NCBI GenBank assembly: GCA_000165425.1
Contig: CT868059.1
Location: 124,001-188,000 of the forward strand
Direction of reading: 5' to 3'
Source: Paramecium tetraurelia
Taxonomy: Eukaryota
Length of the DNA: 64,000 nucleotides
The notes beneath the pieces are model-generated. The model saw only the letters and a list, made by a program, of their open reading frames with translations. It had not been told where the DNA came from and searched no databases. Positions 1,269 to 48,746 of the stretch are shown here, piece after piece; position 1 is the first letter of the stretch; each line of letters opens with the position of its first letter. The translations under genes were made by a program, and so were the position numbers.

Positions 1269-4200
1269 TCATTCTACTCTACTTAAGTCAGCCTATGATT
1301 GATGGTCATATCCATATTGATCCACAAATACCTCAGGGTAGATCTTATTGTAGAAACGAGGGACGGACAGAATGGTTGGGTTGATGTCTGGAGATAGTGA
1401 GTCATTTTCGTCCTTTTCTCTAATGAAATATCTCTAAAATATCTTACTTATCACTCAATTCCAAAGGATTCATTTGATACAAATGGTCTCTCTTTCTGTT
1501 CTCGTTTCTTACGATGCCCATCAAATATTCTCTAATCATTCTAAATCTCTTCTTAATTCTAGCACGTTGTTCAGCTCTATTCGTGAATAGTTTCCTTGTC
1601 AACCAATTCTTGTTTGACAAATTTGGGAACTTCACATTAATCTTATTTCTTAGCTTATCCAAGGCTTCTTCTTAGCCATCCAATTAAGCCCACAAAATTT
1701 CCCATAGGATAATCGCAATGAAGACTCCATTGATGATTATCAAAAATATGTAGAAGGGCCAAATGATCTCCTGATTGGAAGTCTAGTTGGCTGAATATAG
1801 AGTCATTCCCAACACAATGGAGGTTCCACAAACTAATGTACTCATATCATCCAAATAATTTAAATAGGGTAACTTAAATGGCTTATATTTCTTAGTGAGC
1901 AGAGAATAAATGAACACAATGATGAAGATCAAGGCAGCCTTGATGATGATTAAATCTTCGTAGAATGTCAAAAACAATATGATGAAACTCTTCTAGAAAA
2001 TCTTCACTATTTCCCAAAAGTAAGCTTTGGGTTGATATTCATTGTATAGATAACCCCACTTCTTTCTATTTTCTCCGTCGTTCAAATCATTTTTAATCTT
2101 GTACATGCTCAGAAACATATAAGTGGGTATGATCAATCCAAGTGTAAATGCAGACGGAAATACAAAAGAAAGAACCCATTTCAAATGCTAGGCAGTATCG
2201 TATCTATAGGCCACATTCCCTTGAACCCAGAAGATATTCGATACTTGTCTGAATGACAGCAACGATACAAAGCCTCCTAGAAGAGTAGGTTGCAAATAAG
2301 TGAACAAGTATATGAAAGTAGTGGTGATGGCACTCTTACTGGCATCTGCTTGACGCAACAGGATAGCAATTCCATACAGAATAAAAAAGGTTAAAATGTA
2401 GATGATTGGCATGATCAAAGCCCATATCATTCTAAAGTACATGACATTGATATCTGAGATCTTGATCAAGAAACAATCCAAGGAGTAACTCATGGACTCT
2501 ACAGGTGATCCGACAGTCTTGAATGCACTTGTGAGAGCACTTGGTAAAGAAAGTTAGAATGTTTATACAGCTCCTATAATTTGGAGATAATTGGTGAGCA
2601 CTTTAATTAAGATACCTCCTTAACCAGCTTTAGTTTATTCAACAAAGTATTTCGAAAACTTATGACTGATGATCATGTTATTCACAGCCTCCATTGTACT
2701 CTTCACTGAAAGCATAATGGAAATCAAGGTCCTAAAATAGATAAGATATTATGTTACCAAGTACTAATAAGAGCCACCTTGATTGAATTGTCTCCCACAT
2801 CATTACAACTACCACATTTATACTATGCACTCACTGACCATTGTCCATTCCCCATAATATTGTAGATATCACATTATTCGCATAATGCCCCAATATGTCC
2901 TGAAAAACAGGAGGAGTCTCCTGGAGTCCAGCCTCCCTCACAATTGATCTGCATATTCAAACAATACTCAATCCTAGTACTATATGAGTACGGTCTCCAA
3001 TATCCAGGTCTGAGTTTGACACTGGCTGAAGTGACTGCCTCTGTTGAGATGGTATCTTTGACTTAGCAAGTCTCTCCTGCAATGACCGAATATTAATCTT
3101 GTTGTGAATCACAGACAAGACAAGTACCATCTTCATCTCTCTTCTGCTCTCCCACTTAGCAGTCGAATGATTGCACATTCACTCTCAATCTGTAATTTTC
3201 GATTTGATATTTCAATAAATATGGAGGTTCTGGATTGAACATGGGTATTCTAATCGAACTACACAAGAACTCAATTTACAACACAGCCTAGGAATTGGAT
3301 TTAGGATCAAAATAAACAATCATTTCATCCAAATTGTAATCTTGAGAGGTGGTGTTGAAGTTGACTTCTTGCATACTGGTGTATGGAGAGGTTTGGTTGC
3401 TGGTGACGTTTTCTATGTTTTGTGGATCTATATCAGTGATGTTTTTGAGGTTTATCTTCCTTGAAAAGATTGTACACTTGCTGCCATCCAGATTCTGTAT
3501 TTTATTGTCTTACTTATTGAGTGCTATGATTCTGAAGGTCAAATTGTACGATAAGTATTGTTGTGTTTCTTCGTCGAAGTATTTATAAGTATTGATGGCT
3601 TGTCCACTGGGAAGAGTGATGTAATCCTTCTATGTGTTGGAAACATTGTAAGGTTGAATGGTTATGACATCGATGATGGTTGTTAGGTTTGCAAAGAGTC
3701 TCTCCTTTTCTAGGTAATCGACTCCGCCATTCAATGACAGAGTCAACTAATTGGGATATTCTGCATAATTTTATCCAAACAACTGGGCTTTATTATTTCT
3801 CAATTACAGATTCAATATGCTTGGTGAATTTAGAGTGTAATTTTATAAAAAGAAGGCTCCTCCGACAGCAGCCTAATTTCCATTGATTTCTGAATCATAG
3901 ATATTCAAAGTGGCTTGTTTGGAAATGAAATAGATGGCTCCTCCTGATTCAGAGGCTATGTTGGATTGGAATTTGCAATCATCGAATAGGATGTTAATGT
4001 CATTGACATGAAAGACTCCTCCGTTGGTACCAAAGTTATTGCTAAAGATGCTTTAACGCACAGTGACAGTATAGATGAGGGAGTTTTTGGCAGAATCATC
4101 AACTAACAATCTCAATCGATTTTGGTTGAATTATTGTTGAAGAACAATACAGCTCAATTGTCCACATTGAGACGATTACAATTGAAATTTCTCAAAGGAG

Positions 4201-7200
4201 ATTATGTTATTGCCTAGTTTGAAGTAGTTCAAAAATTGGAATTAGATTAATCCTTCAGAGCATTTCTGACAAATGATTTCCTAGAACTTTGTGTCTTGAA
4301 TCACGATTGAATGATCTGCATCGATATTCATTACAGATATCAAGGATGTCGGATAGTTTTGAGCCAATTGGACATTTTTGAGATTCAAAATAGAATAGTA
4401 ATCTATTATGGTTTGATTCATGTCAATTTCTATAAATGTAGGTGCTATTTGAGAGTAATCACAAGTTAAGGCTAGAGCAGTGTAGGACACTTCACATTCA
4501 GGTACGATATTATCATTTAGACTGTAAACTGAGATGTTTAGGAATTACACATTCTGCATAATGATCACAGAAATACTTGACAATGAAATGAGTGGTTAAC
4601 TGCCTGTAATATAATTACTTACTATAACATTCTTCATGATTAGTTCTCCATTGGATATTTCAATTAACCCATTCATGTAATCAGTGAAGCTGGAATTCTA
4701 CAGAGTTATTTTGCCTTTGATTGAAAAGATATAATTCAAGTGGTAATCACTTATTTCTGATTAAGATAGTTGATAGAGTTATCCCAAATATTACTTGAAT
4801 CCTTAATAGGAATTCTGGAGAGTCAGATTTTGAGCATCTAAATTCAAAAGATTTGATCCAAAGGTCTTAATGAAAGAGTAGTAGATGGAATAAGAATCCT
4901 GAATTAATACGTCTTCTAGGTACATGTTGTTCTCACTGCTTGATGGAATCACGTAGATGACTCCTCCTTCTCTTCTGCTATAACTATTCAAGAATGTGCA
5001 ATTCGAAATGGTCATCTAGATTTGAGAAGAGGATGCATCAATAAAGATTGTACCTCCTTGAGCATTAGAAACTTGTTCCAAAGATGCTCTGCATTCCTGG
5101 AATAAAATGTCTTAAAATTTCACAACGCCATCAGATTGTGGTTATAGATAGATAGCTCCTCCAAGCAATGAAATCGAACCAATTATATTGACATCTTTGA
5201 TTGTCGTGGTGTTTGCAGATAAATAAGCACTTCCACCGAAAGTCTTGATTGGAAACGCTTAGTAGAATTCTTCTTGTTTCGGAATGGTAAAGCTTTCCAG
5301 ACCCCAAACGATGTTCTCGTGTATCACGTTGAAATACAATTGATTAGAATAGAGGAAACTACAAGTCGTTATTGTGATGCTGTTGCACTTCAATACTAAG
5401 TTTGAATTCTATCCATTTGTAGCTATATTCTTTTCAAAGTTGTTTCTGTTCAGTATGACACTTGAATTTGGACTGGAAAACAACAATGTTGAAGAGGATA
5501 CAAATGATAAATCTGATATGTAACTATGTTGGAAATTATACAAAAATTTTGAGTCCTCTACAAGAAAATCCTGATTCTACTCGGATATGATTGATATAAT
5601 TGCTTACAACTCACTGATCTTACTCAGAATTAGGAGATTCTCACTGAAGATACTATTCCTTATTCTGATGGACTCCTTTTATCTAATTTTCAATCTATCT
5701 GATGATTTAATGGAAATTAAAGGTTGATTGATACTTTTGATTTTATAGAGAGTGATGTGATTCATGTCGATCTCCTTAATGTTATATAAGTACAAAATAG
5801 TTGTATAAATTTGAGGTATTGCATTGGCTGAAACACAAGATAATCTATTGTTAAGCAATTTTAAGATATCAGAGTTTCTGGTGACATCCATGTTGTCTAT
5901 TTACACTTTATTACTATTTAAAATGGCCATTTCTGGAAATGTTTTACCTCTCACAATTTTGGTATTGGTTAGAGTCAACTCATAACTATCAAAATATAAA
6001 GTTGAATTTTCTGATGCTATGTATTTTTGTTACAATTTGGTTAGTGTGTATAATTCATTCTAATCAATAAGCAAGTCATCAATTGTGATTTTCAATCCAA
6101 CAAATGTTGTTTAATAGATTTCCATGAATGCCTTATTACCCAAGTATTTGTTTAACTCAAATTTTATTGTTTGCATATCTATAGTATTTCCATCATTGGC
6201 ATCAGAATATTGCACTGATGCTTTATTGGATATCAATATTACATCGTCTGTACTCAAGATGTTGTTCTTTACTTGCAGATCAGTCATTGAGAATAATGGT
6301 AGAATCAGCCATCTACTTTTTGCACTCAATTTGGACTATTACAGCGCAATCTAATTGATATTCACTCTTTTCACTCCTTCAAAACTAGCAAATGTAGATT
6401 CAATTAATTCATCCGATGTCTAAGTAAACTAGGTGATATCGACTACGGCCATTCTTACGTTAAGAGGGAAGTCTGTTCTAAAAGCTTAGGATCCTAATCT
6501 GAATACATTGGATGTAAAGACTGCAGATTAGATTGATATTTTGAGATTGTTGTAGTTTTCAGATAATTTGAACAAAAAGATCTTTGAATTAGTGAATTAA
6601 CTATTTTTTATATCGATGTTCGTTAATTACAGGGTCACATCATCTTTCTTTAGACTTCCAAAACATTGTACGATACCAATTGAATTGATTATTCTACTAT
6701 CTTGAATAGCAAATTGATCAATAGTAATGGAGGTGGCATTCTCAACAACGATAGAAAAGGAAATATCGACAACTTTCAAGGTGATGCTATTTAAGATCAA
6801 CTCGAATTGGAATTGATCATAGATGTATAGAGTTTGATTTTTCGATGTACTTGCCAAAGTGAAATCTTTCAACAATACTTAGTTGAATCCAGTAATGATG
6901 AAGTTTTCATTGAAAATCACATTTGTTGTACCATAGAACTCAAGATTAATAGTTTTCAAAGTAAATACATTCTTCCTTAAATCCGAAATGATTTGGAAAT
7001 TGTCAGGCAATTTGCATGATAAAGTACTATCATCATTAATTAATCGCATCTTAATAGTTATCTCTTTAAGAACTTTCTGATTGAACACAATGGTATGACT
7101 ATCGGATTCGTATTTAGGTGAAGTGAATTCAGTCAAATCTTAATCATATCCATTCAAGACAGTTAAAGACTTCTTGTTGCAATAAAGTTTCAAGTCTATC

Positions 7201-10200
7201 AATGCCTTCTACTTGCATGTGGATGCACTTGAACATTCAACGAAATTTTCCAAATCAAAATCATAATTCAGATTCACAGTTGGGATGGTAAAACTTTTGA
7301 GGCAGATGTAGCTGAATTTGATGAAATCTGCCTTTGTTGGATCAAAATATGGATTGACTGTTGAAAGAGACTTCGCATCCCTTTATTAACATAATGCACA
7401 ATTGTATGGACATTCAATACATTCTCCATTACTCAAAGTCAACCTTTGGCCATTCCAGTTTTCTGTACATTATATACATATAGCTTGCTCATTAATAATC
7501 TGACACACCTTGCAATTGGAATCACAAGATTTAATGCATTTCCCATTTAAGTAATCATAACCCTTCAAACAAGTAACGCATTTGATATCCCCATCATTAG
7601 TCTTTAGTACTAAATCAAGAAAGTCTTAGCCATAATTAGTATTATAGAATGATGTGATATCAATTTTCCAAGAATCCTAATAGAACCTATCTTCCAACAC
7701 ACAACTCTTGCAATTGCGATCACTATCACACATTGAAGTAGTGTTTGTTTAATTGGTTAATTAATACGATCCTTAAGGGAGGTTGGTTGCACTTAATTGA
7801 ACATTTTAACCATTCTGTTCTAGATATCTTGATGATACAGGTAAATTAAAATCAATCACACAAGAAGTCAATTTGTTGATACTTTGTGTAACGCATAAAG
7901 CACACTTAACAACTACATCATCTTTCCTTTACACAATAGGATAGTCTTTGAGCAAAGAGATGGCTGAAGAGTTGCTCACACTTTCTTCATAAGCAATCAA
8001 GCAATTAGTGATTTTGTTCTCATAGCAATTTTAGCCGTCTAATGAGATATAATACTAACTATAATTCACACACTTGAAGCATCTTTATGCATCGCATATT
8101 AAGCAATTCCAACCACATTGGGTGCATTTACCTCCTGACAAATAGAATCCAATAGGACAACTTGTGCATTAAGGCATATCTCCAATAAAAGTGCATTCAG
8201 TACAACTATCTGGACATTACCTGCAGAACTAGTTACTAACCAATTTAAATCCATTTTAGCAACTCTAACACACGTAATGCGAATCACATTAATCGCAATT
8301 TTCATTTTAATCAACACATTAGTTATTTACTGATTTGCTACAACTCTTACATAGAATAGTTGATCTAACTCCTAGATGATATTGGGTTATTAATTTATTA
8401 GAATCCAATTGCGAGGTGTCTGTCACTATTTTCAAACACTAAGGACATAATTCAAGATTCAAATCGCCCGATATTGTAAATAATTAATATGCACTTTCCA
8501 TTCTTTCTATAAATTTGAAGGCATTATTTGGATTGGAATTGAATGCCTAATAATCAAATGTGCAAATCGGGTTTAAATACCACTCTTAACTATTTATGTA
8601 ACAGTCTCCACATTGTATTGAGATGTCACTCATTTGAGTTGGACAACTTAGACATTATTAAGTGTTCCCATTCTTAATTAGAAATTACCCCTATTAACAT
8701 GTGTTGACTTGACTGGCCTCTTAAAAGATATTGGAGCCAACTCTGTCAGTAAAACCTAATAAATGTAGAGGGATCAATACTTTGGCATACGACTAAGGTT
8801 TTATCGGTATTTTCAACGTAGTTCCTTTTACACAGACATTAATTGTCTGTTAATACTCTGAATTGAGAGGCTTGACAAGATGTACATTGATTCACTTCAG
8901 GACCTACGCATTCTTTACAAAGAACATTGCAATCTAGAGATTATAATTAATGTCATACCTTTCACCATCGTAAAGGTATTGCCGAAACAATATTCTAGTT
9001 TCAGAAATGCCATTTATCCTTTCATTAAGGACTCGGCATATTTATCTCTACCTGCTATCAGTACTAATTGCTGAGTGGAGAAATGGTTCTTCTTCTCCAC
9101 GTAATAATCTGTGATCTCAAAATCCTTGAATTGGAAATAGATCTTTGTGTTGCCGTATCCAGTTTCAGCTTCCACAAAAGACCCATGTTAAAATGAAAAG
9201 TAATGCCATTGAGTGACCTGATCCTCATATTTAAGACCTTGGATACTCCATTTGTCATCTTCCTTTGTTTGATAGAAGGTCAATTGAGCAAAAATAAATG
9301 AGAAAGTATGCACTGATATTTTTGTATTTTCAGGGAACTCGTAATCCTATTAGTAATTCAACCATAATTGTCTGTCTCCTTACAAATAATCGTCTGCATA
9401 AAAATCAAATATTGCCAATCGTAAGGCTGTATATGAGGATTTATTTTGATCCAAATTCAACTAATCCAGTTTAATCCAGGCAGAAATAACGTAGTTCCCT
9501 TCTGCATAGAATAAGTCATCCATCTTGGCCCCCAATTAACCGAAATTATAGATATTGTTAAACATATATGTTACCTACTTACCTATGGAACACACATCTG
9601 GAAAACTGCAAGCCACACTCAACGCTGTGTTGAAATCAGTGATGGTGTCGTAGAATTCGTCCTTAAACAGTATTTCACTCTTTTGACCAAAATACAAATA
9701 TCCTGGTGTTTCTTCTGGGATTATAGTTATATACCCGGCAGAAAACCCAGATTTTCTTCTGTTGATCCTGTCGTTCTCAATCCCAGAGATGACGTATGTC
9801 TGATCGTAATTACTATCGATCAACAATTTATAATAAAATCTAAAATCCCCTGCAGCTATGTTTTAACAATAATAAAGATAAGCCCATCTCCCTTCAATCA
9901 TAATATTATCCAAAGCGATTTGGTTTTTGAGAGTGTAACTTCCAAATTACTCTAGAACGATGTAAAATGATTGCGTGTCAAGTGCATTAATCATATAAAT
10001 CTTGGAGTACATGGCTGTTTTCAAAGTATCAAATTCATAAATCAATTATAAATAAGGAAGAGTGGTTTTTTTAAGTTCTGTCGTATTCTACATGGGTATC
10101 CATCTATGCCACATTCCATACCCTATGATATTCTTGCTTGTGTAATCCCTCTCTATCACGTCGTTTAAGACTGGTTTAACTGAGGTTGACATCTTATCGA

Positions 10201-18037: not shown

Positions 18038-18440
18038 ATTGCAAATTATAATAAAAATTATTAAAATAAAATTGTAAAAATAAATTAATTTCCAACATTT
18101 ACATTGTGAATCTTATTCGGAATATGTTGAAAACAAATATGTATATATAATTAAGAGATGACTATTTGATTTTCAATTAACTCTATTTTACTAAAAAATT
18201 ATTTATACATATAGATTACATATAGGCTATAATAAATAAATTTTTATTGTCAATAGACTGATGTCTTCAAAACAACAATCAGTTTTTTATAGGAATTTCA
18301 ACTATGAATTAATGATGATTTATAATGGTATGAAGTAACTTTTAATCAATTAAAATATAATTTAAATAAGCATAATTATGATGTTTCATTTGCTTTATAA
18401 ATCAAAGATTAATTAGTAAAAACATTAATTTTAATATAAA

Positions 18441-18632
18441 ATGAATATGACTACTCAGTTTAATGGTGGATGCCCAACGGAAGCTCAAATTAGAATCTCT
18501 AATAGCAATAGTGAAGTGTTAGAAAAGATTTTATTTTCTATTGTCAAAAACCCAATAGTGCAAAGAAGAGTGAAAAATTCGAATAGAATGACCATTGAAG
18601 GGGCTTTTATAAGTCGCAATACTTACTAATGA
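18441..18632 (+). CDS. Candidate 63-aa small protein
   Basis: ATG after AT-rich AATATAAA, higher GC than the flanks, ends TAC TAA TGA. No recognised homology. Confidence 0.4.
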
Positions 18633-18738
18633 TTTATAATAATATATCGTATTAAACTAGATGGATATAAAACCTAGAGTTTTTTCATAGTATTACTGTT
18701 CGAATTTATTATAATATTCGGATATATATATATTATAA

Positions 18739-19683
18739 TCAATTATAAATAAAATCCTCATCTTCTTGTAAGATGACTTTCTTCTTAATGCATGATCTGT
18801 AAAGAGTGAAAGCTAAAGCAAATAATATCGCCCACCCCCATGCAAACAATACGTATTGCCAATCAAACCCATAAAAGACACCTATTTATGAAATAACCTA
18901 GAACCTGGTTCTTAATACAAGATTTTCTCAGCATCACAGGAGTCTTCACAGGTATTACAACCACAAGGCTGTTTGATTTCGAATTTGTAAGGGTCATAAA
19001 ATTTTCCATCTTTGGCCTTTTCGAAAGTTTAATTGCAATTATTGATGTCAGACATGAACAAAGAGTTTTATTCAGAAAACTCAATGGTGATTAATTAAAG
19101 AGATGAAGATCTAATGAATTGCATCATATCATACACTCCTTATTCGGCTTAGAAATTAAAGAATCCACCTGGGGTTGCCATGGCACTGACTTGAGAAGCG
19201 AAATTTGTTCGTTGGCAAGAAGAAAACACATCCTTATCATAATGATTTTATTTACACAGGCCACTGAAGGATGAATACGTAAGGTTACAGTCTATACATC
19301 AATAGTTCTGTTGGGGTTTCTAGGGTCAGTGACATTGGCTCTGCCAGTGATTTGAAGAAATTCCCCCTATCTTGGATCACAAGAGTAAACACACCAGAAT
19401 CTTTTCATGTTTGCTGCACAACTAGTATTTGATTTGATTCTTACATGTCGCATCCATCACCATCACTACCAAAGGTGGCATCCAAAGAGCTAAAATCACT
19501 GGCAATTCCTTCATCTTATGCCTGAGTGCAGCAAACAGGACTATTCTCATAGAATTAACATTAGCTCATTGATTCACTCATCCAGGGCTCCTTATCTGTT
19601 TCAATGGGTATTCTATTTTCATCTATTGTGTATGCGCAAGGTATTCCATAAGTGAGATGAATTAATGTTAAAATCCAGAACAT
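18739..19683 (-). CDS. Stand-alone Niemann-Pick C1 N-terminal (sterol-binding) domain protein with signal peptide and one C-terminal TM (~285-290 aa)
   Basis: MFWILTLIHLTYG-IPC..; PVCCTQAQD; GCDICAANMKRFWCVYSCDPRQGEFL; ACDVFSSC; PCGCNTCEDSC; TM WQYVLFAWGWAILFALAFTLY. The Cys pattern matches the NPC1 NTD. Three or four tiny introns. Confidence 0.8.
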
Positions 19684-22771: not shown

Positions 22772-24614
22772 TCAATATGGATAATTACTATTTTTATTAT
22801 TCTCAGTAATCATAAATAATTTGGGTGTTACAAAAGTACCCTAACTGACAGGGAGTTTAAAGGTCTTCCTCAAAGTGTCCTACTTTAAAATAGCTCTTTA
22901 TTGCGGTTTTAAGCTAGCTAATCTAATGTTTCTGATAGTATCATCAGCTAAAAGAGTCGTTGAATGTTCTTTTTTTAACATTCTTTTTATCCCTTGGGAT
23001 TTTTCACTTTTTAGTCTAACAATTTCTGTTCTTTATTCTGAGATTTTAGATTCCGATCTATATTCTTAGGCTCTTAAAGTGCATTCTGATTTTATTTCAG
23101 GTTTTTCAATTCTTTTAAATGACTGTTGTTATTGTTATTGTTATTGTTATTGTTATTATTGTTGTTATTGTTGTTGTTATTGAATTTTTTTGATATCTAA
23201 TTATATTTTATAGTCTTACTTGCTCCTGTAGATTCTTAATATAATAAACCTGCATGTTCTATAAACTTATCATAATCTTCATCATATTATTCTAAAGGAT
23301 AGACTTTTTCAAAATTTCCGATATTCTAATTTTCATACTAATCCCTAATCTCTTAGCATTGTTTTATTAGTTTTTATTTCTCCTCCAATGTCAATTTAAT
23401 TGGTTTAGTTGTCAACATTCTTTACTGAAGCATTTACTTTTCTTAATTGATACTTTCCTATTTAGCCTTCTGAGTGCAATTCATCAAAATTAAGGACTAT
23501 GAAATCAATTATCTTTTTATAGCAGCATCCAAAGGAGTATCAGTTGTAAAACTAGGAGAATGATTAACCTCCAATAAATATGGCTTTAGCTTGTGATCCA
23601 AGATTACATCCATTCCTAAGACTTCAAAACACATATTATTCATATGATTATTTGGTTGACAAGATTTATATTAATGAGCTAAAATAGGTTATACAGCACA
23701 GAATGTTTTAATCATCATTTTTTTGATTGTATTCCATAACAAATCAACATTCTCACCTCTACTTCTGAGTAATTCAAAAACACTAGTCATACTTCTCTTA
23801 TGACCAACATCCATTTGTTTATCACTCTGATTAAATATGAAGTTTTCATTATCCTTATTCACAGCATAATTTGTGAGATGCATACAAATATTATCCAAAT
23901 TGTCTTTACCAGGTTTCTTGTATTACTCAGTTGCAAATCTAGCAAGACCTTCTTTAAAGATATAGATTCTTAAGGGATCACAGCCAGCCAATAATACATA
24001 AATTCTAAGATCGAATTTTAAACCGTCAATCAAATAAGGTTTACTCAAATATCTCTAAGCTACATAATGCTCATGAATCGAAAGACCTTCAGCGTCTTTC
24101 ACCAACATTATCCCCTTACCTTGGCATGATGCTTCTGGTTTGATGATAAAAGTTCTGTTTTTGCCAATATTCGCTCTAAAATCACTTAATTCTGCTGGCA
24201 ATAGCCAAGTGTAAGGGAAGTAATTATATGCTTAAGGAAACTATTTATGCATCTTCATAAGGTTCCTTCCCAAATGGTTTTTACGAGCTAAGCTGTACAT
24301 TCCTGGGAAATGATTCACCTTTTGATGAGCTAATTATTGGATTAATCAATTACAGCTCATTCTCCCTAAGAGATCAGAAAAGACAGCCCCATCAGTCCAC
24401 CATACATCCCAATTAGTTGCATTCTCGTCCTTCTAAATTTTCCAATTTAAGATCTTTTTACCAACATGTCTTATCACCGGGTATTGGGAGCCTAAAATGA
24501 GATATGCAGATCATTTTTACTGGAAACATTTACTATTAATTGTTCTTTGCTTTTTTTGACTTTGGTTTTGGGTTTGGTCACCTCCTTTGAAGTTTAACTA
24601 TCATCTTATTACAT
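22772..24614 (-). CDS. TTLL6: Tubulin polyglutamylase, TTLL6/TTLL13 type
   Basis: [99 protein letters not shown]. Confidence 0.9.
23123..23182 (-). repeat. Poly-Gln tract (20 Q) encoded by mixed CAA/TAA/CAG in the TTLL tail
   Basis: (TTG/TTA)n on the plus strand, in frame with the TTLL CDS. Confidence 0.9.
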
Positions 24615-24640: not shown

Positions 24641-27600
24641 TCATAATAATTATTAATAAGTAGAAACCAAAAGCCTGTTTTTGAAACTCTGATATATTCT
24701 TTTACCTAATTCCTGATGCAATCCTAAATTAAGTAAACTAATTGCACTAGGAATGCATTGCTAAATTTCCTTTAGAGAGTATTTTATTGTGACATTCTTA
24801 CAATTTTTCATACTCTAGAAATACAAATGAAACTTTTTTCGCTTTTCTTAGTAAAAAATTGAAACATAGATCTGAGTTGGTCTCATTGTAAATATCATTC
24901 TCTTCAATAATACGTATTAATATTACTATGATAACAAAAATAGACGTACTTTAAATGCAGCATATTGCTTATAATTAGCATTGACTTTGATTAGCTAAGG
25001 GCATTTTTCATCTCCTAAAACATCTTGAACAATGAATGTGCTTGGATTCAATTTCAATTGTTTTTTCAATTTATTCAACATGTAAACTGAACACTTTTGA
25101 ATATCCGATTAAATGAATTCATATGAGTCAACAAAATTATCCTTCAGTTTAAGATTTTATAGATTTCTTCTCTCATCATAATAATAACTAAACAGAACTT
25201 TGCGCAACATGAGCTTAAAATTAACTACCTTAGGTTCTTCGAATAAAGTAATTCTTTGATAAAGTTAAAAGTTTTAGCTTTCATTCAATCTGATGGGAAC
25301 ACACACTTTAAACATGTCTAGTGGTTTACGTACATTCTCAACAAACACTTCAAATAAAGCGTTAACTTCATTACCCAAATAAACTACTTGAGTGTACAGA
25401 TTTTCTCTTAAGACTCCTTAGAATGAATCAAGATTGAAAATAAAATGATTTTGAGAATTTTTAGTAATTGTTATCTTATTCATAAGAGTTTCCCAAATCT
25501 TAATTTCGAATGTAGAAATCATATCAAGATTATTCTTCCTAACAAGTATTTGATTGAAGAATAGATCTTTATCACTTTGATAGTAATTTTCCATGCTCCC
25601 TTGGTTTGAGATTCGTGGACTATGTTTGAAAAATAGACTCTTATCTGCACGAGGGATATTCTATTATTATTAGGTTGGCAAGGACAAACGCATAGGATTT
25701 AGATTTCCAATTGAATTTTACACACTATATTGTTTGGCAATCTATTTCTTCAAGAAAATAGGAGGTTGAGTAGAGGATCTCACATTCTACCTACTTTAAT
25801 CGCTAAAAGATTCAAGTAATTTAGGCATGTCATCATAAGGTTTTTCTAGTAATTCATCTTCATTGTTAATTGATACTTTGCTTTCTGTTAATTTCTATAA
25901 TTCCAACTGCGGAATGGCTCTTGCTTAACTTCTCATCTCACTATAAAAATCTTCAAATTCATCTGGATGGTTGACAGCAATCTAATAAATCTTGCTCATT
26001 TCTGAGAATTTCCATCTATTTATATAAAATTAGTCAATAGTTTCTTTGGTGACCAAACAAGATGGGAAGATAGATTCTAGAAATTCAGGATTCATTTATT
26101 GGAAATCACTTTATTAAATATAACAACTAAAATTCCTGCAGGTTTGTGGAATATACAATCCAATTTAAAATTTGTTCATAGACAAATACGAGACAGTAAT
26201 AATGACATACATTGAATTTACAACTTTAGTAGTTTTATATATAAATTTTTATCCTCTAAATACTGGTGTCAACATAGAAGTATTCTTTAAAATTCTACTG
26301 GCTTCAGCTGGCAATTATAAATTTTCAATTTAAACATCCATCATTTGTGTTTGTGATTTTTTACGAAAATTATTATCATTCAATATTAAAGATAGTTTAG
26401 GTTAAGAGGATCTAACATTCTATTGCTCTTCTAAGATATTGCTTCCATAAGTAACTTCTGTAAATGTATTATGAAGATCATATTTCGATTGATTTATGAT
26501 ATAAGATAATGGAATCTTAATTCCATGATAAGTGTTAGTTCTGTAACAAATTAAGTAGGCTGTCAAAATTTTGAGTACATCATGTAACACCTTATCATTA
26601 AAACAATTATTAAGAGCAACTTTTGGACAAATACTTTTGATATCTGCTAGATCCAAAACTAATTTGAATACTTTGGTTCTGCTTTCCTAAGGAGTAATCT
26701 AAAAATAAAAGTAAGTGTGCTCTCCGTTTTCCTAATCAAAATAAAACTTATTGAATTTATAGACTTCACATTCTACGAACACTTTCCCAATATTGCTGAC
26801 TCTGCTCTATGCATTGAATGTTTTCCTAAGGAAATAAGTATTCATAAAATATCTCAATCGACTTGATGAAATTAAAGTTAATTTTAATTGTTATTTGAAA
26901 TAATAAAAGAGGATTGTTTGTTTCAGCAGTCTTTGATTTTCATTGCTAATAAACTATGAAGGATCGGAGATGTACATTAATAAGAATTAATCTAAAGCAC
27001 TGTATTTATCTCTATTTCTCTCTTCCAAACTAATTTAATGCCTTTTGAATTGTAATGCTTTTCCTATTAATCGATGTTAAATTTTAGATTGGGATCTAAT
27101 TTGATAACCGATCATTTAAGGTTTATTGAAAATGTGTAATATTTTTTCAACATCTTGAAGTTGATGTACTGTTCTATAATATGTTAATCTTTGATTCGGA
27201 TAATACAGTCTAATTTTAATTTATAACTTTTTTAGTCCAATAAATTCATGCATATTCTTCTTCAGAATAATCAAATCTTGTTTGGCTTATTGATCACTTA
27301 GATATAATAATTTAGTATCAAACACCTTAATTTCTTTAAAACAAACCTCAACCCTGAAATAGGAATTGAAGTCTTTGAAATAGAATTTATTCTTAATAAT
27401 GCTGAATTTACTTCTATAATTTTTAAATGATTTCCCATCTAACACTTTCTCATCATAATTTTCTTAATTAGGCTCACTTACAATAGAGAGGCGAGAACCT
27501 TCTTCAGCCTCTGTTTGATACACTTTTTAATCTATTACTAAAGAGGCCATCTTCTCTGAATAAATTAAACTATGTATATCTGTCAAAGGTAATAATTGGC

Positions 27601-30600
27601 TAGCTTATAATTCTTAATATATCTCATTATATATGAATTCGTCATAATGATTAATTCTTTTTACATATCTATCCAATAAAATCAATGTATGTCTGTAATC
27701 ATATTTTAGCAGTTCTTAAATTAAGGATAATTTCTGTTATTTTTCTGCATAAGTTAACTTATTGATTATCTCTAACTTCTATCTTCTATTAGGTAATCGT
27801 AAACCAAAATCAAAGTGTATTTCTTTTTTGCTTATACTGCCATCTTAATTGTTTATAACAAGGAAGGCCTTGGATTCTTATATTAAAACATATCCAATAA
27901 ATATAGTGTTTTCTTGCTTAAAGATAAGATTAAGTGCAACATAATTATCTGGATATTCATTAATATATTCTTCTGGTTCTGGTTAGATGATAATACCTTT
28001 GGGGGGAAAGTAAGGTTCCATATTCACATTAGTATTAAGTTTAATGACAGGGCCTTCCTTTGGTTAATAGTTTTAGTAGTCATCCAAATTTGCCAATTGA
28101 AATTCAGAGAAGTACTCTTGAACCAATTGAATTTCAGTTTATGATCTATCCTTATATTCTTATGGATCTTCTAAACTTTTTTTAGATTAAGGTGGTTCGA
28201 AGGCTTCCTTTTATTATTATTATCTTCTTGCAAATTCAGATAGGTGATTACCCACTTTAGGAGCCATACTATTTCTGATTAATGCTTAAGATGAAACGAT
28301 GGGTGCATTTCTAGGACTAATCATTGTGTTTCTATTATTGATGGTTGTATTTTATTTTTTGGGATGTCTTAAAGGAATTTCCTTTACTTAATCTCTTTCG
28401 GAACTATTTTCATTTGATTTCAAATTGATAGAAGGTCGTTTTTAATCTGATTCAGATATATTTTATTGCGAGGCTTCAGATTTGTTATCATCAGATTCTT
28501 AAATGACAATGCTTTATTCATGTATAAATTCATCAGCATAGACTTATTGTCTTCGTTATGTAGACTAAATGACAACTGGTTGTTCTTATTGATGATGTTC
28601 GATTAATTTAATAGGTTCATTTTTAAATTGTTTGAGAATCATGATTCTCTTTATTTCCTTTTCTATCTTCTTATTCCTATAACACTTGGTACTGTCTATT
28701 ATTTAATTGAGCAATTTCTTATTGATTGCATCTTTCATGGACACTAATTTATATCCAACCACTGATCTTATAAGATAGTAATGATTCTTTAGAGCGTACA
28801 TTAATTTGCCAATGATCTGTTGAGCAAAATCACTTTTTAAGAAGACTATAGTTTTACAATTGTTAGGTTCATATAGATTCTATTACTTACAGTATATACT
28901 GAGGAGACCATTAAAATTTTCTAAACGATCTTTGGAAAACCATCTCTGATATTCATCTAGATAACTAACAAAATTATTGATTTTGAAATTCACATTAAAT
29001 TACTATTCGTCATTTTGCAATTAGAAGTAGACTATCAATTGCAATGCAATAATAGATTGTTAGTCAGTAAAGATATTCATTATATGTTGTAGTTGATGTC
29101 CTATGATAAAAAGGATGAAAATACTTAATTGTGAAGGAGTGTTGGGAAATGATATCTGTTCATCCTCATCAGTTTAAGTGTTTGCATATCCACTGTCACT
29201 AAATGCACATATTGATATGTTCGACAATTTCCATATTTTGATCTCATCATCGAAGAATAGTTTACCTAAGAAGTACATTTCTTATTCTGGGAGATTATAA
29301 AAATCAACAATTATTTAAACTAACTAATAATTTAAATGATATGTTACTGTTTTAGCTTTGTTTGTACTAATTTATTCAGCCTCATTATTTTTGATCTCTC
29401 TAACAATCTAATCGAATCTTCCTCCCTTCCTGATAGAATTCTTGAGTTCCTTTACTGAGACTTTCATAGTGGTTCTATTGCTTTGATTGCTCTCTAATTT
29501 ATCATTGCAAGCTGTTTGACTTTGTGGTTTTTATGTTGCCATAGGAGTTAACTCAATAGTTTGAGTAGTTTTAATTTTCCTAATTGTGGATTTGTACTTT
29601 CTAAAATATTGTTAAATGATTTTAGCAGCCAAATTCAATTATTCCATCGAATATTTATTCAATAGGTCATAGAAAAGGGTCTCGCTTTGCTCTGTGATTT
29701 CTGTTTACACATGCTATAACTGAGGGATCATAACCTATTATGAAGGAGATTATTGTTATTGGGCCAACACAGATTCAGTAGTGGGCACTCTCATTTCATC
29801 CAATTACTGTTGCATATTCAAATCTTGAACTGTTTACAATTTGGGTAATTTCTGCTCACTCTATTAAGTATCAGATTTGTTATGTAACATTTGTGTATTC
29901 TATTTGTTTAGCATTCTGGGTATAAGTCTACTAGATTTTATTTTCTTCTTATTTGAGGTCATCTATTCATTTTGGTCTCCCTATTTGTTGTTGGTCTTCT
30001 TCTTTAACTGAAGATGTTCTGACTTAAATTGTGGTCTCATAAGCATCATCTCATCAATAGGTTCTGTCTTGAGCTAAGCTTCCTGCAATTGTACTCTACA
30101 TTTGAAATACACTATACTTCAATTTATCCATATAATTCTCATTCATTAGACTAGTTCTTTGAGAATGAGCAGCCAAGGACAACCTAGGAGAAAACAATTT
30201 ATCCTGAGGGAGTAAGGACTAGTTCATATAGGTTGATGCTGCTCTGGATGAGAGTTTCTTATTCTTGATTTGAAATGTCTTCTCTTGCTACTATTAATAT
30301 TCGTCAATCTATTATTAATTAGAAATAGTCTTCAGTTTCTCTTCATATTCTTATCTGACTTTCTTTACATACTCAGGCAATTGATATTTGGTGGAATGTG
30401 ACGACAACTATCTCACTATTTATTGATAGGATTTCACTTGTGTCTACATATGATGCTATTAATATGTTAGGTATGTAATACATCAAAATTTTTGTTTGGT
30501 TTTAGCGTTACTACTTTGCGTAGCAACTCTTAACCAACATCCTTTTAGAGATCAGCTTTGAATTGCTGGAAGTCTACCTTCTCTTATCCCATAATCATTT

Positions 30601-32525: not shown

Positions 32526-34742
32526 TCACTACAAGTCTATCCTTAATTGTCTAATCTTCTTAATTTCATTCGATGACAATTCAGATATGGCACTGCTGCT
32601 CAGAAACTCTTCCATCTCCTTATACGATTCCAACAGTAAAGTGCTGCAAATCAATTATAATCTAGCAAAGGCCTGTTTATTGTTGGGATTGGTCATCCTA
32701 ATGAATATTGGATAAACAATACATAATCAGATAATTGATACTTGTTCTGACTTCCTTCTCAAGAATGACAGCTCCTGTTTGATGGAATTTCTTATTCATA
32801 ATGATCAGCTCTAGTTATTTGGCTATCGAATAACAGAGATGCAAGGACATTTATTCGTAATTTTCCTATGTAAATTAAGTCTTCCATTGATTCAACCCCT
32901 TAAAAGCATTCTTTATTTAATTGGAGAAGTATTTCTGATACTCCCTCTCTTGTTCCAACATGACCACATCCTTCTAATCAAAATGCAATTATTTAATCTC
33001 CTCGAATACTTCCTTTACTGTGCTCTTCAGATTCTCTGCCAACACCTTCAATTTCTCCTCGATTAATTTCTAAAACTTTTTGGTGTTAACTTCAATCATC
33101 TCTTCTACTGCCCCCACAATCATTTATGATTATGGGCCTTTAGGTAATTCACTATAGATCTGTGACTTGAGTGTTTTCAGATACATAGGTATATTACTTA
33201 GAATGTTGAACAACAAAATAATGAATGAATTATTGACTGTTTGATCTTGTGCAATTCCTATGGCTTAGGGAGAAAAGTATTCTTTCTTCAAATATCGATG
33301 GAATAGTTGAAGAGTGATTTGATGTAAATCATCAGAGATGACTTGGAATCCAATGAAATTGATTAGTGCACTTGCAATGATTTGATTTTCAGTGGAAATC
33401 GCTCTTTGGATCTATTATTTGATCAAATAGAATATCTCTTCTAGCCATTCGTGATATCCATTGCTTAATAGTACATTCTGACACTCTAACAACTTGGTAA
33501 ATTTGCCCTTATCGAAATTCCACAAATCTTTTAGAGGTTCTGATTTCTAAACAAAGAACACTATTTGCTGTTGTAATTCGATTTAAGAGAATTCTAAATA
33601 CTTACTCAAATATTCTGTAATAGTGTCACCGATAGCCAAATTTGTAATATCCTTATCTAATTCTGCTGTCTGTTTGAGATGTTACAAAAATCCATTGTAT
33701 TCACTGGAGATTGCTGAAATCTCATCACAATAATAGGAAACCTTCTCTAATTGTTTTTGATCCAAATTAATCTTTTTGGAAATAGATTGCAATAATTGAT
33801 TATCATAACTTTAGACAGATTTGGCATTTTTAACCATTTTCTCGATTTCAAAAAAGGAGTTCAATTGTTTTAAGACACCAACCAAATAGGGATGTGAGAT
33901 CTTAGAAACTAGATAATCAATCAATTCCAAGACTCCTTCAACCCCATAGTATTGTTAAACATTCTTGGAGAATTTTTCTGGTTTGATCAATTCTAAAATG
34001 CCAACAAAATAATTCAGGAATGGGTAGTGATACTTATTGTTGGCAATATCTTAGAAGGATAGAGGCAGATGCTATTATTCATTCTATTCTAAAGTTCTTA
34101 GATCCTTGAGTAATTCTTCGCCATAAATGTTCTTAACTTTGTCAAGCGATTACTCTAAATGCAACACTCTAGCCAAGCCTGAACACAGATTAATTTTTTC
34201 GAGTTCATTATTTTTGACTGCTAATTCAAATTGTTATTTTTGGAATGGTATCAATTGGTTTATAATTAGATTTTCCACAAATTGATAATCGGATTGGCAA
34301 AATTCTTTCAATAGATTGGGAAGGATCTCATAGTAGACTTGACCGAATTTAATGCATGAGGCAATGTCTTATTATTCAATGGCAATCGGTAATTGATTCT
34401 TGATTCGACTCAATTCTAGAAAGCAATTCAATGTGTTTAGTAGCAACTCTACGTTTTTCTTTTGATTTCTTGCCATACTTGATATTCTTACTTCAAAGCC
34501 TCAAAACTCTTGATAGTGACATGAGCATTTTATTGAATTTGATGCACTTGATTGTCCATAACAATGGCATCTTACCTTAAGTTTGATACTTTGGAAATGC
34601 TACTTTTGATTGAATCATCAAGAGTATCGCTTTCATTTGAGTTGAGCAATTTGTTGGCTTCCAGGATGAGTTTCTGTTTCCTCATGCTGTAAAGTACTTC
34701 TTCTTACTCAATGAGTGGATAGATATCTTTTAATGAGTTCAT
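32526..34742 (-). CDS. COG4: Conserved oligomeric Golgi complex subunit 4-like
   Basis: Helical protein. C-terminus KKFHQTGAVILEKEVR...AFARLQLICSTLLLES...LSSNEIKKIRQLRIDL resembles the COG4 C-terminal domain. A 23-nt intron near 34469-34491 restores the frame. Confidence 0.7.
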
Positions 34743-34824
34743 TATAATATCTATATATATATATAGTGTATATTAATGTATCACACAATTCAATCATTTG
34801 CATATTTCATAATTTAAAATAACA

Positions 34825-37800
34825 ATGAAGAGACTCGGACAAGCTCTGATCTTGATTTATTGGTTAACTCTACTTTAAAATACATCTGCAGCCTCGAACT
34901 CTCTGAGTGTTTCGAATGCTGCTTGTTCATGCACATAACTTCTAACTGAGAAAGAATGCAGAGAACGTAAATGCTATTGGAACAACAAAAAATGCTCTGT
35001 TTTAACAATAAACACTACCAATTATTGCGATTCGATAGGGATAGATGTCTGTAAGAGTACACCTGGTTGTGCCAATGTCTCAGAGAAGTGTGTTTCTTTT
35101 TCGGGATGCAGTGCCTACTAATACACAACCAATGAGACTTGCTAAAATATCTCAATCAATTGTACAACTGATGGAGAACAGTGTATAGAATTAGATAAGT
35201 GCAGTAGTTACACAAATCAGGTGAGTTGCGTAAAGGATGAAAACGGGAAGTTTTGTTATTGGAGTACTGAAAAAAGTGTATGTCAATTGCCAACAACTTG
35301 TGATCTGTTGCCAATTACTTTGAACTCCGATTTATTATGTAGAGCTCAGATTAGTAGTTGTACCATGAAAGAAGGAGGTGGATGTGAAGCAAGTGGGGAG
35401 AAATGCGAAAATCAAAAATTGGAAGGAGCATGTGTCACAAGTTTAGATCAAAAAAAGAATTGCATTTGGGATACAAATCAATGCAAAGAGAAAACATGTG
35501 TAAATGCCCCTATAACCAATATTACTCATGAATTATGCACTACCTATCTATCTACATGTACAGTAAATGATGCATTAAATGGATGCCAAGACAGACCAGT
35601 TACATGTTCAGCAGCAAAGATTCAAAATAATTGTGTAATCAATAGTGCTGGTTAAAATTGCTATTGGAATAAAAACAATTCTAAATGTGAAGACAAAAAT
35701 TGTGATAATGCCCCCGATGATTATACCACTCACGATAGGTGTTAGTAGTGGTTGAGTACTTGCACTCTTAAAACAGGAGGAGTAGGTTGTTAGACTAAAT
35801 TGACTGATTGTACAAAATACACCACATCCAATCAATGTGCAAAGACCTTAGCTGGAGACGATTGTTTTTGGTATGAAACTAAATGTCTATTGAAATCTTG
35901 TACCAATGCTCCATCAACAAATATTAATCATGATATGTGCTCGTCATTTTTACCTTCTTGTACTGTTCAAATTGACTTAACTGGTTGTGAGACCAAAAAG
36001 GCCACGTGTTCTCTATACACAAAAGAAGACCAATGTGTATCCTAATTGGATGGCAAGTTATGTATATTCTAGAATGATGCTTGCATAGAGAGAGTTTGCA
36101 CTAATGCTTCTGAAGACTTAACAAACGAATAGGATTGCAAGAGATTCTCTCCTACTTGTATGGTCAAATCTAATTACAAAGGCTGCATTTTACAAGAATG
36201 CAAAAATATTGATACAAAGGATCGTTGTTCATTAGATTATCAAAACAAATAATGCTATTTTGGATTGCAATGTTAATTAAGAAGTTGTGCTAATGCTCCA
36301 ACTACATATAAAACAGATGCGGAATGTCGATCTTTTCTCAATGAATGCACAGTCAATGAAGAACTCAAAGGATGCATTGAGAGACCCTCCTCATGTGATA
36401 AATTGAAGGAATAATAATGTACTAAATTAACTGATAATGTGACAAAATGCAGTTGGAATGATGATGATGAGAACAATAAAGTATGTAGAAACTTGAATTG
36501 TTCAGATATTACTCCAGGAGCTTAAACAAATGCTACTTGTAGTGCCTTTGATCCATCTTGTACAGTTGCTGACAATCCCAGTCTATGTATGGCTAAACCA
36601 TTGGGTTGTTCATTGATGGTCAATAGAGAACATTGTTTTGGAGTAATACTGGTAGATATGAAATCAACCTGCAGTTGGGATAAGGATCAAGAACTATGCA
36701 GAGATCGTTAATGTTCAGATGCTGATTCAACCCTAAAGACAGAAGCTGAATGTAGAAATTACTTAGCCACTTGCACTCTCAATTCTACTGGCAATGGCTG
36801 TGCAGATGAACCAGCCACATGCAAAGGATACAAGACAAAAGAAGTATGCTAGAGTTTAGTATCCAATCCAAGCAATATTGTGTTATGTGGTTGGAATGGA
36901 TGTGAAAGTAGAACTTGTTCAAATGCACCCATTTTGGCTTCAGGATAACTGTACACTCATGTATCATGCAGTTCATATTTAAATACATGTACATTGAATG
37001 AAGATTAGACTGGATGTGTTGCCAAATTTACATCCTGTACTGATGTTAAGAGTTAAGTGTAATGTGGAGAAACAATCTTAGTCACTGGAACCAGATGTTA
37101 TTTTGATGTTTCAACTGATAACTACTTCTGTAGAGACTTCAAATGTACTGATGAAACCTCCTCATTAATGACCCATGCCAAGTGCTAGAATCTAAGTAAT
37201 TAATGTACTCTTGCTGAAAGTGGAAATGGTTGTGTTGATCTCTTAAGTGCTTGTTCAGACATTAAAGAGTCCTAATAATGTGAAGGAATTGTTTTAAGTG
37301 GAAATCGTTTATGTAGTTGGGATACAAATCCTACTCCTGACTCTGATACTCAAATCCCAGTTTGCAAAGATAGAGCTTGCAAATTCAGTCCTCTAAAAGA
37401 CACCTCAACTAATTGCGAGAAATACTTATCAACCTGCACTCTAGGTGATCCAGATTTGGGATGCATTGACAAACCTGCATCTTGCAGTGGTCTAAATCAA
37501 AAACAATGCAGCAATGTCAAATTAATCAATGGAACATATTGTTCATTTGATAGTACCATAGTAGATGAAACTTAATAATGTCATGCTAGAATTTGTGCTG
37601 ATGCTCCAACTAAGTATCAGACTGATGCTGATTGCAGAACTTGGCTACCAAATTGTACAGTTAAATCTGATGAATCTGGATGTGTCGATGAACCTAGTGA
37701 TTGTTCTTTAATGATGAAATTATAATGCTATAAACTATCTGTCAAATCTGTTACTTGCTTCTGGAATGCCAATGCCAATCCTGCCAGTTGCAGAGTAGCA

Positions 37801-45841: not shown

Positions 45842-46048
45842 TTATATATTTAATAGAGCATTCACAAAAGATTGTCCAACGTCTAGGAAGCTTTCGGAAA
45901 TTATTAAACTGAAGTCTACAACAATCAAACTGTATTGCTATTCCATTATTTTAGGATGTGAAGGAAAGAAGTGACTCCAGAAAGAAGACTTTTACTTTTT
46001 ATCTAACTAAATAATGAATATTGTTAGTTATAAATTATTTATATTACA

Positions 46049-48746
46049 ATGAGTCTTTAACCTAGATTAAGTCCGAAGAACTACAAGAAGTACAGCATTT
46101 TCAATGATACAATCAATATAAGGACATCTCGCAACACAAGCTTTGATTATGAATTTTAGAAGAGAAGGAATTCCAACATTAGGTTCAAAAATTCAGGCAG
46201 TGTTCTTAGAGGATCCAAAGCAGGGGACTTTATGGGCAACATCACAATTCATTTCTAATATGTACATATCCATTCCCAACCGTAGGGTTAAAATGCATTC
46301 AGAGATAAGAATTTGATTGAAGCTATTAAATACTATAACGAATGCACATTAATAGATTCTCTGCATATACCAAGTAGATATATGTTGGGAGTTTGTTATT
46401 TCTCCCAAAATCAATATGAAAAATGCATTAAAGAACTCAAATTTGTTAAAGAACAATAGCCAAATTACAATAAGAATGTTTTTATCTTGCTTGCTCTTGG
46501 TTACAAAAAACTGATGCAATTAGATTGGTCAATTAAAACTGTATTAATTCTATTGTCATAATAGTTAGATGAATGCTTGTAGTTTTATCCTCAGTGCTAT
46601 GATGCCTTGATATTCAAAGGCAAATTGGAACTTAAGTTGAGGAGATTCTAAGATTGTGAGTCAACATTGAGGTCAGCCATAAAAATTAATTCAAAAAGAT
46701 AAACCGGATATCATTATCTTGGAGATTGTTAGAGACTTCAGAATAATTTCGATTAAGCAATTAAAAATTATTAAATAGCTTTATAATTTGACACAAGTGA
46801 TAAATCTAAATTGAACATTCTCAAAATGTCAACATGTCTTTATGAAATGTCAAATTATCAATAAGCTTTATAGATGATTGATTAGGTATTATCTTCTATT
46901 AATTAGTATTTAAGTCAAGATGAATAATCATCTGAAGCAAACAAATTGAAGGGACAAATATTTTAAAGGCTTGGCTAAAAGTTAGAAAGTTAGTTATATT
47001 ATGAACAAGCCATTTAAAACAATAATTCTAGAATTGCAGTCTCTAAGGCCATTATAGAAATTAGCAAATTCAAAATAGAATCTAAGGATTTTTATTCCTT
47101 ATATCATACACTCCTGAGAGTTGAATATTTGGATGTTGATAAATAATAATTACAACCCTACATCCAATTCTCTGAAGCAGTGGTCTATTTATTGAAAAAG
47201 AACTACGCTTAAGCAGATGAGGCATTCAAAAATTTGCAACAATTGGATATCCCACCTATTATTTAGGAGATCTGTCCTTCCTATGTAGGATATTTGAATA
47301 TGATGCTTAACAATTTCGAGTAGGCTCTGAAGGACTTTAGACAGAATAAATCGTTACCTTACAATTAAGTCATATGTGAAGGGATTATCAACTTCAATTC
47401 ATTTGATATTGCTTATTCCAAATTTGATTAGGCCTTAAGTTACAATTAGGTTGATCCCAATATGTATAAGGCAATCTTATTAATTAAAGAAGGATTCAAA
47501 TCAGAGAATTCTGACTATATCAATGACTCATTGTAATGTTTAAGTAGAGCCCAACAATACAATCAGAATAATTCTTAATTGATGTATCTAAAATCATTAA
47601 CCTATATGTTGATGGACAATGTTGAAGATGCATACAAAGAAATACTAACAACCATAGAAAAGGCAGATGAAAATTTAGCCGATCATTATTATTTGAAGGG
47701 ATTACTTCTGGCTTAGAATGGAGATGTCTTAAATGCAGTCCAGGACTTCTCAGTATGTCTAGGAATTGATGATTAATATCAAAAAGCCTATTTATAGAGA
47801 TCAAAATGCTATTCATATTTGGGAGAAATTCAATAGGCTTTTGATGACATGAACTGTTACATCTAGTTTGTAGATGACTTTTTGAGTGCTGGTAATCTGT
47901 TATACAATAGTAAAATGTATGAAGAGGCATATAAAACATATAAATAAGAAATAAACCTAACGATTTAACATAGATAGCAGATGGCAGTTTGTCTCTTTTA
48001 GCTAGAATAATTTGATGGAGAAGAACTTTAAGAGTTTATCAGAGACAAATAATTTGATCAAAATATGATATTGGCTTATTAGCAAATTATTAAATACGAA
48101 TATGATTCAGCCATTTTAACACTACAAAAAAAGATTGATCCCTAATCCTCCTTTTTGTTTAATAAATAATATCTACATCTTTATAAGGGCATTTGCTATT
48201 TGTATTTATAGAAATATCAAGAGGCAATCCAAGAATTTGAAAGGTGTATTTAATTGACTAAATCAGAAACTCTCATTTACATAACAAATTATAATATTAT
48301 GTTTTGTTGGATGATGTTGAAGAAATTTAAATATTCTCATACTCAATTAGAATAACTAATCAAACTATCGGAACAGAAGCACGTATTACTAACCATTCGG
48401 AATCTTTTGATAGATTAAACTGAATTTACTTTGTCAGAAAATCCATTAGGAATAGAAATTATGTTGGCAGATACAATAAAATTATAACCTTTTATCTCAA
48501 CATAATATACTATTTATCCATACTTTTCACTTCCAATGGCATAACCAAAAGACATCTCTCCTTAGTTTGATTTCAAAATCATCACATCTTTAGATGTATA
48601 TAATTTTAAAATCCATTTAGGCTTAATCAATTGAATGTAGACCTGAAGCTCCATGGATTAGAAGAAATTAGACTGGAGTGTTATTTACAGATAATTTGTA
48701 GTAATGTGAATTAAGTTAAACAGAGAATAGCTCTCCAGAGAACTGA
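46049..48746 (+). CDS. Multi-TPR repeat protein
   Basis: EAIKYYNEC..SRYMLGVCYF, YDALIFKGKL, GYHYLGDC.RLQNNFDQAIKNY, HYYLKGL..AVQDFS. Four tiny introns. Ends SSPEN-TGA. Confidence 0.8.

Follow-up and report, generated by a model that had tools for sequence, protein, structure and literature searches.

A gene for an NPC1-type N-terminal domain on a single membrane anchor in Paramecium tetraurelia

A gene in Paramecium tetraurelia appears to code for the head of the sterol transporter NPC1 with the rest of the transporter left out: relative to NPC1, NPC1L1 and NCR1 (PDB 3GKH/3GKI, 3QNT, 9F40), its product lacks the middle lumenal domain, the sterol-sensing domain (SSD), the C-terminal lumenal domain and transmembrane helices (TM) 2–13. 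This raises the questions of whether the gene is complete as it stands, whether its N-terminal domain (NTD) is of the NPC1 type rather than a related Cys-rich fold, whether such an arrangement is new, and what a head without a transporter might do. We address these questions using the 64-kb stretch of DNA that contains the gene (64,000 nucleotides; hereinafter the window), comparisons with other proteins, a structural model and RNA reads. All coordinates below are those of the window.

Structure of the gene and its downstream end

The gene lies on the minus strand (19683–18739) and reads from start to stop under the ciliate code (table 6); the window as a whole reads TAA and TAG as Gln and has 23-nt introns. 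An earlier note on this DNA had placed the gene at 18739–19683, which is exactly the interval from the stop to the start codon. Its features are as follows.

19445..19683, minus strand: exon 1; the ATG at 19683–19681 is the first after an in-frame stop, and the N-terminus aligns with those of the orthologs
19422..19444, minus strand: intron 1, 23 nt, GTAAG..CTAG; the frame requires its removal, and the sequence spanning it is ..GCDICAANMKRFWC.. in the orthologs P0003 and P0004
19256..19421, minus strand: exon 2, with the core NPC1_N motif CAANMKRFWCVYSCDPRQGEF; PF16414 matches the exon alone at E 5.8e-5
19233..19255, minus strand: intron 2, 23 nt, GTAAA..TAAG; from in silico splicing and ortholog alignment
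18905..19232, minus strand: exon 3, the remaining lumenal domain through the CGCNTCEDSC cluster and then a linker; from ortholog alignment
19111..19134, minus strand: candidate intron 4, 24 nt, GTATG..TTAG, inside exon 3; from ortholog alignment
18882..18904, minus strand: intron 3, 23 nt, GTTCT..ATAG; from ortholog alignment, with a contig of sequencing run X3 ending at this border (18883)
18739..18881, minus strand: exon 4, with GVFYGFD, the TM helix, the tail and the stop TGA (18741–18739)
about 18861–18799, minus strand: TM helix W244–Y264; from hydropathy and alignment to TM1 of NCR1, NPC1 and NPC1L1
18798–18742, minus strand: predicted cytosolic tail R265–N283; from the translation of exon 4
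18705..18738, minus strand: probable short 3′ UTR, 34 nt; from the end of the run-X3 contig, which is weak evidence

Placed end to end, the translations of the four exons tile annotated orthologs in P. octaurelia (P0002), P. pentaurelia (P0003) and P. sonneborni (P0004), starting at Met1 and finishing with ..FIYN; the identity of the 283-aa model to them amounts to 95%, 84% and 81%, respectively. The sibling-species proteins already carry the public label “Niemann-Pick C1 N-terminal domain-containing protein”. Exon 1 supplies the signal peptide (about residues 1–13) and the beginning of the NPC1-type domain with its CCxxxQ motif (C51 C52 .. Q56).

An uncertain element of the model is the 24-nt stretch at 19134–19111 within exon 3. 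It begins with GTA, ends with TAG, is a multiple of three and holds no in-frame TGA, so that its retention would add eight residues without breaking the frame. These residues (YDMMQFIR) are missing from all four aligned Paramecium proteins; hence, we treat the stretch as a candidate intron, as the orthologs imply. The coding sequence measures 876 nt (291 aa) if it is kept and 852 nt (283 aa) if it is spliced out. In the runs mapped, the gene has too few RNA reads for any intron to be confirmed, and the candidate intron is uncovered: a single read pair falls on the gene, in exon 1, in one of the three oligo-dT RNA runs, in which the neighboring gene is well covered.

The question of completeness turns on the downstream end. 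The stop TGA at 18741–18739 lies only 106 nt from the stop codon (18630–18632) of a convergent open reading frame on the plus strand (18261–18632), which has reads in all three oligo-dT runs and is covered by a 260-nt contig (18407–18666) at depth 62. As this expressed gene ends 106 nt downstream, there is no space for SSD or RND exons. The next gene on the minus strand encodes a protein kinase; a scan of 16 long open reading frames in the 64-kb window recovered no Patched, SSD or RND domain, and within the gene itself the NTD is not succeeded by a middle lumenal, SSD or RND part. Moreover, the annotated orthologs of the three sibling species stop at the same residue. A run-X3 contig (18705–18883, depth 3.7) covers exon 4 and a further 34 nt, which is weak evidence for a 3′ UTR because the RNA nature of this run is a guess. 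The gene thus encodes only an NPC1 sterol-binding-type head on a single anchor. The absence of the middle lumenal domain, the SSD and the RND core, which the earlier note had read from the letters, is borne out by the stop, the convergent gene, the kinase neighbor and the ends of the orthologs alike, and nothing points to a transcript running into further TM exons.

The convergent open reading frame at 18261–18632 is itself a small, well-expressed gene without a Pfam family.

Identity of the domain, its anchor and its tail

The protein consists of a signal peptide, a Cys-rich NPC1-type NTD, one TM helix and a 19-residue tail ending at the TGA; the earlier description of it as a signal peptide, an NPC1-type Cys-rich NTD, one TM, a short acidic tail and a stop is accurate to the residue. 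Hydropathy analysis reveals an N-terminal hydrophobic stretch (residues 2–20) and a single TM segment at about W244–Y264 (Kyte–Doolittle score 1.79). There are 16 Cys in total, 15 of them in the ectodomain, along with three lumenal N-glycosylation sequons (N-x-S/T). The human NPC1 NTD has 18 Cys, and the ectodomain thus has fewer.

Sequence profiles and predicted fold concur on the family. The Pfam model NPC1_N (PF16414; gathering cut-off 27 bits) matches all four whole Paramecium proteins examined with 45.5–58.3 bits, the range into which the orthologs with 81–95% identity fall. Exon 2 is the sole exon of the window gene to match individually (E 5.8e-5), its 23.3 bits being below the cut-off. 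In an alignment of 26 full-length family members, every member matches NPC1_N and none matches a Patched or SSD model. When the profile built from these 26 members was compared with the sequences of the PDB, it retrieved NCR1 (2.2e-24), NPC1L1 (4.2e-23) and NPC1 (8.5e-22), with no other significant match. At the level of structure, an AlphaFold2 model of the P. sonneborni ortholog P0004 (81% identical; computed from the 26-sequence alignment) has a pLDDT of 86 and a pTM of 0.74 and displays the NPC1-NTD fold, with a helix at 244–283. All 12 Foldseek matches of this model at E<=1e-3 are to NPC1, NCR1 or NPC1L1. The expectation of a free-standing NPC1-type NTD therefore holds by Pfam, by PDB profile and by Foldseek, and on these profile and model comparisons the domain is assigned to the NPC1 type and not to the folate-receptor type, the folate- and riboflavin-binding folds matching far worse (see below).

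The alignment of the family profile to the PDB sequences takes in the signal peptide, the NTD and TM1 (profile 6–284 versus NCR1 6–287). Since it spans the first TM helix, the C-terminal helix is a homolog of NPC1 TM1 and not a generic anchor.

The tail (R265–N283) begins with a basic segment (RSCIKKK) and closes with an acidic-hydrophobic one (QEDEDFIYN; C-terminal letters VILQEDEDFIYN). This polarity is shared across the family: the first eight residues of the tail have a net charge of +1 to +5 in 26 of 26 members, and the remainder is mostly acidic. We considered a conserved strict acidic-dileucine sorting signal ([DE]xxx[LIMF][LIMVF]) and rejected it, as the pattern occurs in just 3 of the 26 tails; by eye, the window tail matches it only if Phe is taken as its first hydrophobic residue. 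A looser pattern, acidic residues followed by two hydrophobic ones, is found in 15 of the 26 tails as compared to 9.1 ± 2.1 in shuffled tails, with 0.65% of shuffles reaching 15. This enrichment is suggestive only, as the pattern was picked post hoc from tails that had already been inspected.

Relationship to the published split form of NPC1

In the account of Adebali, Reznik, Ory and Zhulin (2016, Genet Med 18:1029, PMC4990510), Naegleria and most chromalveolates are described as having an NPC1 without the NTD and with 12 TMs, and all such organisms as having a separate NTD homolog of about 300 aa that bears a signal peptide as well as a C-terminal TM. The short 12-TM NPC1 and the separate NTD protein are said there to coexist exclusively, and since the two joined end to end resemble human NPC1, their products are regarded as probably interacting. 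On this account, an organism with the split form would be expected to have no full-length NTD-bearing NPC1, with oomycetes as the exception (PMC4990510). Paramecium, Tetrahymena and other ciliate names do not appear in the main and supplementary text of that paper, and its Figure S4 may list them. That a detached head can work in trans was reported for human cells by Trinh et al. (2018, eLife 7:e38564, PMC6062155), in which the human NTD-TM1 bearing a lysosomal signal restores cholesterol export together with an NTD-less NPC1.

The window protein has every sequence feature of Adebali et al.'s standalone cholesterol-binding protein, namely a length of about 300 aa, a signal peptide, the NTD, a TM and a stop. 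Its HMM family, moreover, includes an oomycete member. It departs from that description in coming from a genus with at least three paralog lineages, of which the window lineage has lost one Cys pair. No short NTD-less NPC1 core is found among the 16 long reading frames scanned in the 64-kb window. With the engineered human NTD-TM1 it has in common the signal sequence, the NTD and TM1, followed by a short tail for targeting on the cytosolic side; the human molecule, however, is an artificial construct made from a fused protein, whereas the Paramecium tail, with its putative sorting role, is natural, and the two proteins are about 16% identical in structure alignments.

The free-standing head is thus real here, and the split layout has been known since 2016. 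The earlier note had entertained this layout as a distinct arrangement, and on this point it does not stand, because Adebali et al. described the arrangement and Trinh et al. its function in trans (PMC4990510, PMC6062155). The window copy is an ordinary member of the published family. It carries little weight as a discovery, the layout, the likely mechanism and the taxonomic pattern having been in print in 2016 and function in trans in human cells in 2018. In the literature searched, we found no experimental study of a free-standing NTD protein in any ciliate.

The breadth of the family can be gauged by running a profile against 1.84 billion representative proteins: 363 clusters match at E<=1e-3, of which 170 reach E<=1e-10. 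Among the 150 of the 363 clusters that were listed, all are 52–475 aa long and none reaches NPC1 length. All 26 full-length members that were aligned have a C-terminal TM followed by a tail of 12–63 aa. Among ciliates, the named members are those of Furgasonia, Blepharisma and Ichthyophthirius, and among oomycetes that of Lagenidium. For several members the contig is some 1 kb long, a size that short mRNAs would account for. The nearest cluster in the ESM Atlas, labeled “Niemann-Pick C1 N terminus domain-containing protein”, has 101 members, mostly from Ciliophora. As regards a fused long form, the exon 3 query found nothing longer than 284 aa and the family profile none at 784–2235 aa, which counts as weak evidence.

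A metagenome search with a three-sequence alignment recovered a single 3.2-kb locus from an environmental protist (L001), in which the NPC1_N reading frame again stands alone and ends in a stop codon, with an unrelated reading frame upstream, a convergent gene with a CRAL/TRIO domain downstream and no Patched neighbor. The convergent gene, a fragment at 2762–3232 on the minus strand of L001, is of the Sec14-type lipid-binding class, and its pairing with another lipid-handling gene may well be due to chance. A further oddity is the 710-aa protein IMG5_112050 of Ichthyophthirius multifiliis (P0158), which is annotated with a cold-shock domain and has NPC1_N at its C-terminal end; it probably represents two adjacent genes merged in the gene model and not a real fusion.

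A probable detached sterol-binding head and the alternatives to it

The statement of the earlier note that Paramecium needs dietary sterol agrees with the description of P. tetraurelia as a sterol auxotroph (PMC8172173). For the protein itself we favor, with a probability of roughly 0.7, the reading that it is a detached NPC1 NTD-TM1 head that passes dietary sterol to a separate NPC1 core in the food vacuole or lysosome. It would be a type I membrane protein whose signal peptide is cleaved off to leave a disulfide-rich, N-glycosylated NTD in the lumen, presumably that of food vacuoles or of a lysosome-like compartment. The TM1-homologous helix would act as the anchor, and the short tail, first basic and then acidic, would face the cytosol. 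The NTD might take up dietary sterol freed from digested prey, either directly or via an NPC2-like carrier, and hand it to a 12-TM NPC1 core encoded by another gene and equipped with a sterol-sensing domain, a presumed partner in Paramecium, which in turn would move the sterol into and across the vacuole membrane. The coexistence with a short NPC1 and the function in trans are posited here by analogy with the literature. Hand-off to a separate NTD-less transporter, which the earlier note had proposed, is how this protein family is generally understood. In Tetrahymena, the NPC1 inhibitor U18666A is reported to block the exit of sterol from phagolysosomes, and an NPC1-like protein is reported from phagosomes (PMC8079401).

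The alternative that survives best, and which we nevertheless hold to be rather unlikely, is that the protein is a true member of the NTD-TM1 family that has diverged as a paralog and no longer donates sterol to an NPC1 core. It could then be a lipid receptor of the cell surface or oral apparatus, a binder specific for tetrahymanol-like lipids or phytosterols, or a weakly expressed spare from whole-genome duplication. There are indeed at least three paralog lineages in aurelia species (P. pentaurelia and P. octaurelia), namely the window type, a second lineage with P0005 and P0156 (51–54% identical to the window type) and a third with P0157 (43%). The gene also has hardly any reads in the three oligo-dT RNA runs. 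Further, the Cys pattern sets the window type apart: its clade has two Cys before the CC motif, as compared to four in most relatives, and among the Paramecium paralogs only the window type and P0005 are reduced in this way, while P0157 keeps four. The N-terminal loop of the window lineage has thus lost one Cys pair, and the loop (the region of human N41) is therefore rebuilt. The window copy is probably part of a derived paralog clade and so perhaps not the chief functional copy. Against this, the same reduction in Cys count is seen in other family members (P0056 and P0067), and siblings are 81–95% identical and share every remaining Cys, which speaks for continued selection.

The sterol pocket offers evidence on both sides. 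We take human N41, Q79 and L175/L176 to be pocket residues, with N41, in the N-terminal loop, as the ligand of the sterol hydroxyl. The window protein retains the Gln aligned to Q79 (CCTQAQ), which is a Gln in 17 of the 26 family members, and has Phe-Phe, likewise hydrophobic, aligned to L175/L176. The positions aligned to human P202/F203, which are reported to be needed for cholesterol binding (Trinh et al. 2018, PMC6062155), carry unlike and nonconserved residues, with the alignment there being of low confidence. Divergence at the latter positions would favor a head that has left sterol transfer; the retained Q79 equivalent and the confident, fully NTD-like fold model speak against it. We regard sterol binding by the window domain as putative.

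Much less probable is that the domain belongs to a receptor of the folate-receptor/riboflavin-binding type, such as a folate chemoreceptor of Paramecium, and does not bind sterol. Members of the folate receptor family are GPI-anchored or secreted and are not known to have a TM1-like helix. In keeping with such a receptor, the Folate_rec model (PF03024) gives weak matches of 23.4 and 25.3 bits to two of the four Paramecium proteins, with none in the other two, and matches 3 of the 26 family members at E<=1e-3; published accounts also describe folate chemoreception in Paramecium with GPI-anchored receptors. However, both scores fall under the 29.8-bit gathering cut-off of Folate_rec, as against 45–58 bits for NPC1_N. 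Relative to the folate receptor, Juno and riboflavin-binding family, the window protein thus has a far weaker match and no sequence-level match in the PDB: the profile search found no folate receptor at E<=10, its next matches being noise (E 3 and 8.7); in Foldseek, the first folate receptors appear at E 1.5e-2. The helix, which aligns to NPC1 TM1 and is followed by a charged 19-residue tail, is also unlike a GPI signal.

Weakest of all, and close to refuted, is the notion that the gene is the 5′ part of a mis-modeled full-length NPC1 with SSD/RND exons further downstream, for which there is nothing positive beyond RNA coverage too thin to define the transcript directly, and against which stand the in-frame TGA (the only ciliate stop), the RNA-covered convergent reading frame, the kinase as the next gene on the strand with no Patched or SSD domain in the long reading frames scanned, the common end in three species, the length of at most 475 aa among the 150 listed relatives and the low-depth contig that ends 34 nt beyond the stop.

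The paralog lineages of Paramecium, at least three and old, invite a bolder reading, which we regard as a long shot: the different heads might be interchangeable modules for differing lipids or compartments, docking on a single short NPC1 core or on a few of them. Their cargoes could include phytosterols and bacterial hopanoid-like or tetrahymanol-like lipids, and the N-terminal disulfide apparently lost in the window lineage would adjoin the site of the sterol hydroxyl. Were this true, modular heads would permit a combinatorial sterol uptake that is beyond the reach of a fused NPC1. The practical value of the locus lies in providing a natural system for studying how a detached NTD finds and loads the NPC1 core and whether paralogs differ in cargo or compartment. 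Paramecium is convenient for such tests because it is a sterol auxotroph, is easily subjected to RNAi by feeding and has large food vacuoles.

Elsewhere in the window, a gene typical of variable surface antigens occupies 34552–40716 on the plus strand; its 2054-aa reading frame contains 25 copies of the Paramecium surface-antigen repeat (PF01508, 661 bits). The other neighbors with a Pfam family are ordinary: on the plus strand, 45962–48634 encodes a TPR-repeat protein, and on the minus strand there are a tubulin-tyrosine-ligase-family enzyme with a poly-Asn run (22870–24345) and a COG4-like Golgi complex subunit (32581–34500), along with two long reading frames of 2055 and 1825 aa (2724–8891 and 24641–30118, respectively) without a Pfam match at E<=1e-3. 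The first of these has a Cys-rich start and a repeat-like character and may code for a large surface or secreted protein.
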